64,000 nucleotides of DNA, taken from contig CAZIEY010000002.1 in NCBI GenBank assembly GCA_964538855.1, positions 1,709 to 65,708 of the forward strand, read 5' to 3'. The notes under the pieces are model-generated. The model ran no database searches, was not told where the DNA came from, and saw nothing but the letters and a program-made list of their open reading frames with translations. The stretch comes from an uncultured Candidatus Saccharibacteria bacterium. GTDB taxonomy: Bacteria > Patescibacteriota > Minisyncoccia > Phycocordibacterales > JAACPR01. The position numbers were made by a program, and so were the translations under genes. Shown here in pieces: positions 543 to 38,395 of this stretch; positions within the stretch are counted from its first letter, which is position 1; the number at the start of each line of letters is the position of its first letter.

Positions 543-557
543 AGAATTTTAAAATTT

Positions 558-599
558 CTTGAGATTTTCTTTATAAAGATTTTAGACCAAATCCGTATA
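558..599 (+). promoter_or_regulatory. Conserved promoter-like module, copy 1 (aattttaRaatttcttRa..ttttctttataaagattttag-N10-tataATG), -10 abutting the start codon
   Basis: About 45 bp is near-identical to 36690-36735 and 11712-11771. TATAAT overlaps the ATG, so the transcript is likely leaderless. Confidence 0.5.
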
Positions 600-1010
600 A
601 TGGGATGCGTGAATGATTTTGATACTTGGAACAAAAAGAAGAAAGAAATTAGTGCGAGTCTAATCTATAAACACCCAAAAGCTCAAGAAATATGGCATTG
701 TCGTGTCGGTATCAATGTCGGGTGTGAGATATATGGCAAAGGCTCAAATTATGTTCGGCCTGTTTTGGTTATAAATGACGACGGTGAAGATAATTTTATT
801 GGAGTTCCGCTCACATCAAAAATCAAAAATACAAAATATTCACGCGTGATTCGCGAAGAAGGAGGAAAACTCGCTACAGCATTGACGTATCAAATCAGAT
901 CTTTTGATAAAAGGAGACTGATAGAAAAACATAGTACTCTATCAGATGCAGAATTTGATTTGGTATGTCAAACGGTAAAAAGGTTAGTCAATTTAAAACG
1001 ACCCAATTAA
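600..1010 (+). CDS. PemK/MazF-family endoribonuclease toxin-like protein (paralog 1), with no adjacent antitoxin ORF
   Basis: EIWHCRVG...VRPVLVIN...IGVPLTSK...QIRSFDKRRL matches the PemK/MazF pattern (GEIW..RPvlVis..vvvPiTs..qirtiDk.Rl). It is 70% identical to the 36736-37149 ORF. Confidence 0.65.
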   Translation: MGCVNDFDTWNKKKKEISASLIYKHPKAQEIWHCRVGINVGCEIYGKGSNYVRPVLVINDDGEDNFIGVPLTSKIKNTKYSRVIREEGGKLATALTYQIRSFDKRRLIEKHSTLSDAEFDLVCQTVKRLVNLKRPN

Positions 1011-1068
1011 GGGTCGTTGGGCTCTTGCGAGCAAAGATGGCCAATCCATCCTAGAACAATATTATATC
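1001..1068 (+). repeat. Conserved 3' element of three consecutive hairpins (CGACCC-aattaa-GGGTCG spanning the stop codon; GCTC-ttgc-GAGC; GATGG-ccaat-CCATC), copy 1
   Basis: Near-identical to 37135-37205. The first stem differs between copies by compensatory changes (CGACCC/GGGTCG versus ACGACCCC/GGGGTCGT). Confidence 0.5.
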
Positions 1069-1116
1069 AAAAAATTTTTACGAAAGTCAATCCAGCCCGT
1101 ATGATATAATTTTCAT

Positions 1117-11700: not shown

Positions 11701-11711
11701 TAATAAAAAAA

Positions 11712-11771
11712 TTTAGAATTTCTTTAACTTTTCTTTATAAAGATTTTAGCTCGCATCAGTATAATGACACG
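11712..11771 (+). promoter_or_regulatory. Conserved promoter-like module, copy 3 (same about 45 bp element as 558-599 and 36690-36735)
   Basis: aatttagaatttctttaacttttctttataaagattttag-N10-tataATG. Confidence 0.5.
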
Positions 11772-12157
11772 ATGCGCAAGCAGGCCAATAACTTTGCTTT
11801 CATTGATGCTCAGAATTTAAATTTGGGTATTGCATATTTGGGTTGGAGATTGGATTTCGAGAAATTCCGAATATATTTATCAGAGAAATATTCAGTGAGA
11901 AAAGCTTATTTATGCATCGGATATATTCCAGGAAACGAAATTTTATACACTAGATTGCAACATATGGGATACGTATGTATTATCCAGCGACGGTGACTTC
12001 TATTGCTTAGTTGAATATCTGTTGAGAGAAAATAAGTTAGAGATGCTTTTGGTTCCAGATGAGAGAAGGTATTCTGGCCTACTCAAAAAACTGAGTCAGC
12101 CCGATAAAAATATTTTTGAATTTCTGAATCGAAAGCGACCGCAGCTCGAATTAAAAT
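11772..12157 (+). pseudogene. NYN (LabA-like/PIN-like) nuclease domain gene interrupted by an apparent +1 frameshift near 11940-11975
   Basis: Frame A carries FIDAQNLNLGIAYLGWRLDFEKFRIYL...CIGYIPGN and stops at 11996. Frame A+1 continues DTYVLSSDGDFYCLVEYLLRENKLEMLLVPDE... to 12157. Together they reconstitute a complete NYN domain. Confidence 0.5.
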
Positions 12158-12281
12158 GAAAAGGCTTTGCAAGGGACGGAACCTTTGCAAAACCTTTTCG
12201 TCGTGATGTGTTAAATATAGCAAAAATTTCACAAAAGTCAATCCAGCCATTTCAGATAAAAATAGTGCTAAAATACACAAT

Positions 12282-36735: not shown

Positions 36736-37149
36736 ATGGGGTGCATGAAAGATTTTGATAGTTGGAATATCAAGAAAAAGCTTATTAATAAACACAAATC
36801 TCTTCAGCATCCTAAAATAGGTGAAATTTGGTGGTGTCGAGTTGGGCTTAATATTGGAGGTGAAATATACGGTAAGAGTATCGATTACGTGAGACCAGTT
36901 CTTGTTATAAATTGTGAGGGTGATGAGAATTTTATCGGTGTCCCGCTGACTTCTAAAATAAAAAATAGAAAATATGCTTGTGTTATTATGGAAGATGACG
37001 GGACACTTGCGACAGCGTTAGTGTATCAAATTAAATCTTTTGATAAGCGAAGACTGGTAGAAAAGCATAGTACCTTATCGAATGAGTATTTCAATAAAGT
37101 CCTTGAAATTATTAGGATTTTGATCGGTAAAAATTTAACGACCCCGTGA
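36736..37149 (+). CDS. PemK/MazF-family endoribonuclease toxin-like protein (paralog 2)
   Basis: EIWWCRVG...VRPVLVIN...IGVPLTSK...QIKSFDKRRL. Paralog of 600-1010. Confidence 0.65.
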   Translation: MGCMKDFDSWNIKKKLINKHKSLQHPKIGEIWWCRVGLNIGGEIYGKSIDYVRPVLVINCEGDENFIGVPLTSKIKNRKYACVIMEDDGTLATALVYQIKSFDKRRLVEKHSTLSNEYFNKVLEIIRILIGKNLTTP

Positions 37150-37205
37150 GGGGTCGTTCGGCTCTTGCGAGCAAGGATGGTCAATCCATCCTAGACCACT
37201 ATTAT
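37135..37205 (+). repeat. Conserved three-hairpin 3' element, copy 2 (ACGACCCC-gtga-GGGGTCGT with the stop codon in the GNRA loop; GCTC-ttgc-GAGC; GGATGG-tcaat-CCATCC)
   Basis: Aligns with 1001-1068. Its 3' end abuts the stop of tsaD on the opposite strand. Confidence 0.5.
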
Positions 37206-38395
37206 ATCGCGGTAGATGATAAAGTCAAATTTCCCTCAGCTTTAATTTCCGGACAAATTTTCGTCACGACGCGTTGCGCTTTCAAAAACCCAGCAATTGC
37301 GATCATTAACGCATTGTCGGTTGTTGCGTGCATTTCCGGAATGAGAACTTTGACGCCGTCGGCTTCTAATTTTTTAAAGGTTGCACGAATGTGAGTGTTT
37401 GCAATCACACCACCGCCGATAATTAGAGTCTGTGCACCATGTTCGTGCAGCGCGCGTTTCGTTTTTTCAAATAATACTTCGGTGACGGCGTCTTCGAATT
37501 CGCGAGCAATATCTTTTTGAGTGGCTTCATCCACGTTGAATTTTTGTTGCAAATCAGGTTTCGCTTTTTGATCGGTTAAATAATAGAGCACCGCCGTTTT
37601 GAGGCCAGCAAAAGAAAAATCAAAATCCTTGCTATGAATCATCGGACGAGGAAATTGCGCAGTGTGCAGTAATTTCTCCTCACGTGCCCGCGCTGCCAAT
37701 TTCGAAATTTGTGGACCACCAGGATATGACAAGCCCAATAATCGCGCCACTTTATCAAACGCTTCGCCAACTGCATCATCGCGTGTTTGTCCGATTAATG
37801 CGTAGTCGCCCCAATTTCGCACCAAAATCAATTCGGTGTGACCTCCGGAAATCAAAAGTGCCACCGCAGGGAAGGCAAAATTATGCATATGCTCATCCTC
37901 TTTCAAAACTGACACGATGTGACCTTCCATATGATTTGTCGGCATGAGGGGAATTTGCCACATGTATGACAGCGCACGCGCCACGTTAATGCCAACCCAT
38001 AATGCAGGCTCGAGTCCTGGTCCTGACGTCACTGCAATTACATCAATGTTTGGTTTTTTAATGCTCGTTACAAATTCAAAAAAAGTTTCAGCAAGGCCTG
38101 GATATGGTGACAAAATGTCGCTGATTTTTGCCCGCTGTTCGTTGGATGGTAATGTGCGGAGTTCTTCTTCCATTTCAGTTTCCTGAAGAAGCGCATGCAA
38201 AAGGGGAATGATATTTCGGGCATGCTCACGCTTTGCAATAGTTGGCATGACGCCACCGAATGGTTTGTGGGCTTCAATTTGCGAATTGACGACTGTGCCG
38301 AGTGTTGTATATGAAAGCTCGCTCCCATTCACGGTTGCTTCTATCAAGGCGAGAGCGGTTTCATCACAACTGGTTTCAATCCCGAGGATTTTCAT
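37202..38395 (-). CDS. tsaD: tRNA N6-adenosine threonylcarbamoyltransferase
   Basis: MKILGIETSCDETALALIE and Kae1/TsaD family motifs. Confidence 0.85.
   Translation of the reverse strand: MKILGIETSCDETALALIEATVNGSELSYTTLGTVVNSQIEAHKPFGGVMPTIAKREHARNIIPLLHALLQETEMEEELRTLPSNEQRAKISDILSPYPGLAETFFEFVTSIKKPNIDVIAVTSGPGLEPALWVGINVARALSYMWQIPLMPTNHMEGHIVSVLKEDEHMHNFAFPAVALLISGGHTELILVRNWGDYALIGQTRDDAVGEAFDKVARLLGLSYPGGPQISKLAARAREEKLLHTAQFPRPMIHSKDFDFSFAGLKTAVLYYLTDQKAKPDLQQKFNVDEATQKDIAREFEDAVTEVLFEKTKRALHEHGAQTLIIGGGVIANTHIRATFKKLEADGVKVLIPEMHATTDNALMIAIAGFLKAQRVVTKICPEIKAEGNLTLSSTAI

Follow-up and report, generated by a model that had tools for sequence, protein, structure and literature searches.

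Among the described toxin-antitoxin (TA) systems closest to the one considered here are the 3'-overlapping type I systems, in which an RNA pairs with the 3' end of the toxin messenger RNA (mRNA) and cleavage by RNase III starts decay (PMC6562991). In txpA/RatA, bsrG/SR4 and yonT/SR6 of B. subtilis, and in the fst par locus of E. faecalis with its shared terminator, a convergent RNA is encoded on the opposite strand under its own promoter. The same arrangement is predicted at two PemK/MazF-like toxin genes in a 64,000-nucleotide stretch of DNA (hereafter the window; positions 1,709 to 65,708 of contig CAZIEY010000002.1, assembly GCA_964538855.1) from an uncultured Candidatus Saccharibacteria bacterium, where a three-hairpin element at the 3' end of each toxin gene appears to be a small RNA gene on the minus strand. 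As in the type I systems, the two transcripts are predicted to overlap at their 3' ends and to share the terminator region. Unlike in those systems, the toxin is a protein of 125-140 amino acids with the soluble-type endoribonuclease fold of the MazF/PemK family rather than a small hydrophobic peptide, the overlap barely reaches the coding sequence, and the RNA has closed tetraloops and conserved single-stranded motifs.

Other described systems share part of this combination. SymE/SymR of E. coli, also mentioned in PMC6562991, likewise sets an antisense RNA against a protein toxin whose target is RNA and which is not a membrane peptide. There, however, the antisense RNA covers the 5' end of symE with its ribosome-binding site, the fold of SymE is AbrB/MazE-like and not that of MazF, and the RNAs are unrelated to those described here. 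The type III systems (ToxIN, CptIN and TenpIN) combine an RNA antitoxin with an endoribonuclease toxin, as is proposed here, and ToxN has a Kid/MazF-like fold. Type III antitoxins are, however, tandem repeats that lie upstream on the same strand and are processed by the toxin, whereas here there is a single convergent RNA gene; because it has no repeats and differs in strand and position, the element is not of type III. A search for repeats in the window loci gave no direct repeats upstream of the toxin, and no tandem arrays other than two 7-base A-rich runs within the coding sequences. The toxin, moreover, matches PemK_toxin and has no hit among the PADLOC defence models. MazEF and PemIK (type II) have a toxin of the same family, but no MazE/PemI-type or other conserved protein gene adjoins the toxin here, which also carries an extra N-terminal segment (MKDFDxWN..) that is missing in the solved MazF proteins. 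Among the nearest items in the literature is an E. faecalis locus at which a type I module is convergent to mazEF. Another is aMEF, an antisense RNA of E. coli mazEF with a poorly conserved promoter that stimulates the classical two-protein module (PMC8749433). Both aMEF and the RNA described here are antisense at a mazF-type locus, but here the promoter is highly conserved and there is no protein antitoxin. A full-text search of the literature returned no MazF/PemK toxin paired with a convergent small RNA, and nothing equivalent in these lineages.

Results

A predicted small RNA gene convergent to each toxin gene

The two copies of the element (997-1068 and 37137-37208), whose sequences are exactly those given in an earlier, sequence-only reading of the window, were recovered by a repeat finder as a 72-base repeat that is 88% identical, compared with 72% for the coding stretch that it aligned between the two PemK-like genes. 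Global alignment of copy 1 with copy 2 gave 82% identity for the predicted transcribed part and 84% for the block upstream of the genes, as against 68% for the coding sequence. The conservation of the element is at the level of nucleotides and not of protein, since AACGACCC, which is common to both copies, is read in different frames in the two genes, ending in ..KRPN and the stop codon in gene 1 and in ..LTTP and the stop codon in gene 2. The features of the two loci are as follows.

600-1010, plus strand: PemK/MazF-like toxin, copy 1 (Pfam PF02452, E=1e-12; 136 amino acids as annotated)
36736-37149, plus strand: PemK/MazF-like toxin, copy 2 (Pfam PF02452, E=1e-13)
1061-1090, minus strand: predicted small RNA promoter, copy 1 (-35 TTGACT at 1090-1085, 18-base spacer, TG-extended -10 TATAAT at 1066-1061; 11/12)
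37201-37228, minus strand: predicted small RNA promoter, copy 2 (TTGACT, 16 bases, TATAAT; 11/12), inside the last nine codons of tsaD
988-1054, minus strand: predicted small RNA, copy 1 (about 65 nt; fold -26.1 kcal/mol, z=-4.4; ends inferred, start near 1054)
1052-1034, minus strand: hairpin H3 of copy 1
1032-1021, minus strand: hairpin H2 of copy 1 (GCUC-GCAA-GAGC)
1018-997, minus strand: hairpin H1 of copy 1 (terminator stem over the stop codon, 1008-1010)
996-988, minus strand: tail of copy 1
37128-37194, minus strand: predicted small RNA, copy 2 (about 65 nt; fold -31.5 kcal/mol, z=-6.3)
37192-37174, minus strand: hairpin H3 of copy 2
37172-37161, minus strand: hairpin H2 of copy 2
37158-37137, minus strand: hairpin H1 of copy 2 (TGA 37147-37149 in the loop)
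37136-37128, minus strand: tail of copy 2

Each copy folds into three hairpins, as had been read from the letters, and none of 200 shuffles was as stable (0/200) on either strand, with z = -4.2 and -4.3 for the plus strand and -3.5 to -6.3 for the minus strand. The element is real. In both window copies the toxin stop codon does sit in the loop of hairpin 1, as the sequence-only reading had noted, but this placement is not conserved: most relatives have the stop codon close to the hairpin but not within it, and some have a reading frame that crosses the entire element. The compensatory stem change that had been described between the two window copies turned out to be absent, as all eight stem pairs of hairpin 1 are the same in both and copy 2 gains only one C:G where copy 1 has A/A; compensatory changes appear only once homologues from other genomes are compared.

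The strand of the element also needs to be reconsidered. It had been taken for a structured 3' untranslated region (3'UTR), a small RNA, an RNase-processing site or a cis-acting antitoxin-like RNA, read on the toxin strand, whereas the promoter, the tetraloops and the terminator tail favor a separate gene on the minus strand; the suggestion of an antitoxin-like RNA remains a live idea, but one that had probably been attached to the wrong strand. The shared tail after the hairpins (TATTATATC, then AAGTCAA) is indeed conserved, and is identified here as a sigma-70-type promoter of the minus strand. At each of three loci in the window (the third is described below), such a promoter, directly downstream of a toxin-type gene, is the top-scoring promoter-like site, and two of the six sites that score at least 11/12 on either strand of the whole 64-kb window are the small RNA promoters. 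With a start about 7 bases downstream of the promoter, the RNA would consist of the three hairpins, and the loop of H2, when the minus strand is read, is GCAA, a GNRA tetraloop. The earlier statement that no U-run follows, so that the element is no intrinsic terminator, holds for the plus strand and fails on the minus strand, where the same G+C-rich hairpin, H1, is followed by a U-rich tail (GGGUCGUU-UUAAAUU in copy 1 and AAAUUUUU in copy 2); H1 of copy 2 with its tail was scored as terminator-like on the minus strand by a terminator scan. What distinguishes a type I locus, a separate antisense RNA gene with a promoter and a terminator at a toxin locus, is therefore present in silico. Neither the window element nor 20 related loci gave a match to Rfam 15 at the gathering threshold, and permissive scans returned far sub-threshold matches only, mostly to the terminator-like hairpin.

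Relatives of the locus and covariation of the stems

Relatives were gathered through the toxin protein with a pattern search over one genome per species, which used a 5-sequence protein alignment, a 9-sequence one being too diverse, and yielded 195 loci; a word-based protein search had given few relatives. The best 80 of 195 were kept and, according to their record titles, are mostly Patescibacteria (Saccharibacteria, Nomurabacteria, Paceibacterota and others), with Rickettsiales, Bacteroidetes, Bdellovibrionales, Trueperaceae and Sulfurimonas as further labels among the relatives. One carrier (L072) is Sulfurimonas indica NW8N, a named strain rather than a metagenome-assembled genome (MAG). 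In nearly all relatives the layout after the stop codon, read on the toxin strand, is a variable G+C-rich hairpin, a short linker and a tiny hairpin (e.g. GGC-CGAA-GCC), often followed by AYTTGTA and then by -10-like and -35-like boxes on the opposite strand.

Counts of strand-specific signals, made over 87 related regions, are strongly asymmetric. A promoter scoring at least 10/12 occurs in 63 of the regions when the minus strand is read, and in 9 for the plus strand; hairpins with a four-base GNRA loop number 43 against 7, and G+C-only mini-hairpins with a UUCG loop (cUUCGg) 33 against 0. The asymmetry of tetraloops and promoters favors the minus strand, as there would be no reason for it if the element worked as DNA or as plus-strand RNA. 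At the predicted 5' end of the RNA, 5 bases past the -10 box and directly ahead of H2, 27 of the 87 regions from several phyla (e.g. L053, L084, L072 and L048) have the motif UACAA[AG]U, as compared with 2 on the other strand.

Hairpin H3 is restricted to the closest clade, which comprises the window copies, L003, L008-L011 and L001. MAFFT alignments of this clade were not structurally clean and folds of the individual sequences were used instead: all eight members fold individually into three hairpins with differing stem sequences, H1 occurring as AACGACCC, GAUAGCCCC, GAUAGUCGCC, AACAGCUCC and AAUAGCCC, and H2 as GCUC, GCCUGU, GCC or GUC, with a GNRA loop in all.

For the main Patescibacteria type, a covariance model (R1) built from 14 relatives gave 30 clear matches in the protein-seeded loci. 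In the 30-sequence alignment, which was fitted to the model and is to that extent biased towards structure, 94.8% of cells are standard pairs and 9 of 13 pairs change on both sides, a result that none of 500 shuffles (0/500) reached; when the partner columns were slid as a control, pairing fell to 34-65%. These slid controls and the individual folds of the eight homologues speak for a real covariation signal, and the selection on RNA structure that the sequence-only reading had proposed is supported. The set recovered without regard to genes (see below), in which only H1 was free to vary since the search used an exact motif, points the same way: among the matches listed, 76 distinct sequences have H1 99.9% paired and 5 of its 10 pairs change on both sides, with one pair occurring as CG 38, GC 16, AU 12 and UA 5 times.

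Several relatives have features of their own. In contigs L001 and L002 (ENA ERZ26695388), in-frame TGA codons fall at conserved Trp positions (DFDNW, EIWW; e.g. L001 2370-3393 and 5988-6383), and because these are conserved Trp residues of the toxin family, this low-G+C organism appears to read TGA as Trp. It has three PemK-like genes within 4 kb, and after each of two small RNA genes (L001 2790-2960 and 3470-3620) there is a repeated unit of ~130 bases with a long covarying hairpin (GCAAAATAAAAAA...TTTATTTTGC) plus a C-rich/G-rich stem. At L076 (2877-3025), one PemK-like gene is accompanied by a tandem pair of small RNA genes of the family, both with a promoter of their own. At L084 (2389-3114), the small RNA faces a conserved NYN/LabA gene of 220 amino acids, at L086 (3463-3886) a gene for a membrane protein of 116 amino acids, and at L112 a RelE-like gene; the last two look like orphan copies. 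The notion that the small RNA is a generic partner of several RNase toxins, for which the NYN gene at L084 and an NYN pseudogene in the window might speak, was rejected: the RNA is missing from 26 loci of close NYN homologues, and for that reason the L084 RNA, too, is treated as an orphan copy.

Association of the RNA with the toxin gene

The association between RNA and toxin could be assessed independently of the protein by searching metagenome contigs, blind to genes, for the exact 19-base RNA motif GGCUUCGGCCUCCGAGAAA, which is found at 80 loci or more. All the following counts are among the matches listed. Six of the 80 are chance matches in G+C-rich DNA with no following H1, and 74 are true elements with promoter and terminator hairpin. 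The promoter scores at least 10/12 in 55 of 71 true elements, and in most of them the -10 box ends 12 +/- 1 bases ahead of H2; an H1 loop of GNRA type occurs in 40 of 72. Past H1, the next 10 bases contain an average of 5.5 U, and the predicted RNA has a median length of 52 nt. In a toxin-profile search, 64 of the 74 true elements listed proved to face a PemK-like sequence: 48 of these sequences are complete, 8 are truncated where the contig ends, and 8 carry internal deletions or frameshifts next to an intact RNA. Four more elements had flanking sequence too short to judge and six are real exceptions, to which we return below.

In nine other loci (e.g. L091, L108, L138, L139, L144, L150, L155 and L156) rpoC is followed after 5-66 bases by the toxin gene and then by the RNA, and in that lineage the PemK-like gene is probably co-transcribed with rpoC. 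At L105 and L129 the toxin frame is cleanly missing, and the RNA adjoins the stop codon of rpoC with the spacing that it has to the stop codon in the toxin loci. RNA genes that outlive toxin genes are as expected of an antitoxin, although the reverse order of events, in which a toxin gene was inserted beside a resident RNA, could also be envisaged.

No recurrent family of small upstream proteins was found at the 96 loci with enough upstream sequence, the sole cluster being rpoC. A Shine-Dalgarno-like motif precedes 10 of 103 toxin genes and -10-like boxes peak 6 bases ahead of the start codon, which suggests leaderless single-gene toxin transcripts in many lineages. No terminator in the toxin sense was seen between the stop codon of the toxin and the RNA promoter, and in the 260 bases beyond the RNA promoter there was no excess of them either (5 of 66 loci, versus 4 of 66 in the opposite-sense control). 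A phage origin was looked for by motif scans of viral contigs, which gave no match.

The toxin genes and their surroundings

The match to PF02452 spans 106 of 109 profile positions for the domain of both copies, and a profile search against solved structures had EndoA/MazF as its best hit (E about 1e-11), aligned over the whole core. Residues R50-P51-V52 and P67-L68-T69, which do not vary among 9 relatives, correspond in the alignment to the RPV and IT motifs of EndoA, where the Arg and Thr are the catalytic residues; given the EndoA-like core and the retention of this Arg and Thr, the toxin is probably an active nuclease. An AlphaFold2 model of the toxin from a shallow 5-sequence alignment had a mean pLDDT of 39 and was unusable. 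In neither window locus did a reading-frame survey find room for a protein antitoxin frame beside the toxin.

The toxin side has a promoter block of its own, common to three loci of the window and 80-89% identical (repeat families D2 and D3).

545-601, plus strand: toxin-side promoter block, copy 1 (-10 TATAAT at 596-601, no good -35; palindrome CTTTATAAAG at 569-578)
36681-36737, plus strand: toxin-side promoter block, copy 2 (-10 at 36732-36737; palindrome at 36705-36714)
11706-12241: third locus of the same architecture (toxin-side promoter block 11706-11766; repeat families D2 and D10)
11772-12158, plus strand: frameshifted, shortened NYN-domain gene (translations in three frames)
12241-12236 (TTGACT) and 12219-12214 (TATATT), minus strand: promoter of the third locus (10/12, with TG)

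A promoter scan found no -35 box for the toxin promoter. At the -35 position all three loci have instead the perfect 10-base palindrome CTTTATAAAG (569-578, ~11730-11739 and 36705-36714), which could be an operator for a regulator. As ATG 600 overlaps the -10 box, the true start of copy 1 is probably GTG 609; copy 2 probably starts at ATG 36745, 7 bases past the -10 box, where the database protein P0003 also begins (MKDFD), and its mRNA would then be leaderless. At the third locus, the promoter context GGCTGGATTGACTTT is the same as at both small RNA loci, and the RNA would be a single long hairpin (12199-12158; fold z=-4.6) whose U-rich tail abuts the stop codon and which has no sequence kinship with the PemK-associated RNA.

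The toxin of locus 1 lies 57 bases past one NUDIX gene and 106 bases ahead of another (51-542 and 1117-1629). The downstream NUDIX gene has its own TG-extended -10 (TATGATATAAT) directly after the small RNA promoter, and past it, at 1640-1700, TATAGTTAAAGTTGC occurs twice, ~40 bases apart, the first copy being a hairpin followed by a T-run and a probable terminator. At locus 2 the toxin stands between a divergent valyl-tRNA synthetase-like frame and the convergent tsaD (37202-38395), the last nine codons of which (37202-37228) hold the -35 and -10 boxes of the small RNA. Because no other tsaD terminator is visible, tsaD transcripts may end at H1 of the small RNA.

Discussion

The in silico evidence supports the structure of the element, its covariation, its strand, its promoter and terminator signals, its association with the toxin and the missing protein partner. 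The explanation that we favor, and to which we would give an even chance, is that a convergent antisense small RNA serves as the RNA antitoxin or regulator of a solitary MazF-family toxin in a manner resembling that of type I systems; put more broadly, the element would act like a type I antitoxin (our preference) or like a type III one, with a toxin of a type II family.

We infer that the RNA is made, that it neutralizes the toxin, and the manner in which it would do so. A sigma-70-type promoter on the minus strand would start the RNA a few bases ahead of the hairpins, and the last hairpin with its U-rich tail would end it right at the stop codon of the toxin, giving an RNA of ~65 nt here and, for most relatives, of ~52 nt. 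Since the toxin gene has no terminator of its own, its transcript would run through the element and, provided that both genes are transcribed, the toxin mRNA would have the full complement of the small RNA at its 3' end. Pairing of the two would then lead to cleavage of the duplex and decay, possibly aided by convergent transcription. A weak toxin promoter with no -35 box that faces a near-consensus RNA promoter fits the 3'-overlapping type I class.

Several points weigh against this reading. The promoter and terminator calls are consensus matches, and the promoters of these uncultured lineages are uncharacterised. The overlap of RNA and mRNA holds only if the toxin transcript reads through, and as the small RNA overlaps the coding sequence by only a few bases, any antisense effect must act via the 3' end of the mRNA. 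Antisense recognition between loops would start poorly from closed GNRA and UUCG tetraloops, and almost all type I toxins known so far are small membrane peptides. Nor does pure cis-antisense action account for the H2-linker GGCUUCGGCCUCCGAG, which is nearly invariant across relatives whose toxins are 35-45% identical, or for the UACAA[AG]U at the 5' end. The small RNA is also found with no toxin at rpoC (two loci), at a RelE-like gene and at an NYN gene, and the six real exceptions among the matches listed in the gene-blind search are two loci adjacent to rpoC, one with a RelE-like gene and three with no recognisable partner. Finally, model R1 scores the window copies at 8.1 bits (E=0.056 in 301 bases) and 2 bits, neither of which is significant. 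These copies belong to a divergent sub-clade, in which the RNA has one more hairpin at its 5' end and the linker is shorter, and they are placed in the larger family because of homologous toxins, an identical layout and intermediate sequences.

In a second possibility, the same minus-strand RNA would be the antitoxin but would bind the toxin protein as type III antitoxins do, presenting a single-stranded motif between rigid hairpins as a pseudo-substrate. Both CUCCGAG, between H2 and H1, and the 5' UACAA[AG]U are strongly conserved. EndoA (MazF-bs) of B. subtilis, the closest solved relative of the toxin, cleaves at UACAU, which the latter motif resembles. Rigid GNRA and UUCG hairpins would suit a scaffold better than a kissing partner, ToxIN offers a precedent for an RNA that inhibits an endoribonuclease of Kid/MazF-like fold, and orphan RNAs remain after decay of the toxin gene. 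The RNA is, on the other hand, neither a tandem repeat nor co-transcribed upstream of the toxin, binding to a protein would not require a fixed convergent position abutting the stop codon, and the single-stranded motif differs among sub-families, with only CC(G/A)A left in the window copies. We regard direct binding of this kind as unlikely. It is similarly doubtful that there is a widespread, previously undescribed class of repeat-less convergent RNA antitoxins, each a single, rigidly structured RNA transcribed on its own, that neutralize a MazF-family nuclease directly via UACAAAU or CUCCGAG held between tetraloop hairpins; such a class would span Patescibacteria as well as MAGs labelled Rickettsiales, Bacteroidetes and other phyla.

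It might also be that the minus-strand unit is real and yet no antitoxin, being either a convergent module of promoter and terminator that ends or insulates the transcription of adjacent genes, or a trans-acting regulatory RNA that merely travels with the toxin gene. The placement of the locus 2 RNA promoter within the end of tsaD, with H1 as the sole visible tsaD terminator, would suit such a role, as would the true elements that stand directly after rpoC with the stop codon at the offset seen in toxin loci; the C-rich linker, CCUCC, resembles a seed with which an RNA would target ribosome-binding sites, and at one locus two of the RNA genes occur in tandem. Against this, 64 of the 70 sufficiently flanked true elements among the matches listed face a PemK-like sequence, the toxin family has no other partner, and a plain terminator needs no near-consensus promoter at a fixed distance of 12 bases. 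The NYN homologues that occur elsewhere with no element make the NYN association incidental. A role other than that of an antitoxin is distinctly unlikely.

That the hairpins work on the plus strand, as a structured 3'UTR, a processing site or a cis element of the toxin mRNA, is very improbable. The plus strand folds well too (z about -4.2), copy 2 has a GNRA loop (GUGA) on that strand, and the toxin transcript, having no terminator of its own, probably includes these sequences; but the tetraloop counts given above run the other way for both GNRA (43 versus 7) and UUCG (33 versus 0), the conserved tail consists of the -10 and -35 boxes of the minus-strand promoter, the U-rich tail is on the minus strand only, and the stop codon is variously placed with respect to hairpin 1. 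Recent duplication with chance hairpins and no function, for which the lack of compensatory change between the two window copies alone might speak, is hardly credible, as the coding sequence is less conserved than its flanks, the two genes read the shared bases in different frames, and the comparative data contradict chance, with the same architecture and covarying stems in many genomes of several phyla.

The favored explanation, of an antisense RNA controlling a solitary MazF-family toxin, would have consequences beyond this locus. It would add a well-supported structured RNA, outside Rfam, to lineages with almost no known regulatory RNAs, and, if true, would explain many of the 'orphan' MazF genes in the streamlined genomes of uncultured bacteria. 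MazF and PemK are the textbook protein-protein (type II) toxins, and if a sub-family of them is controlled by RNA, the classes of TA systems would blur.

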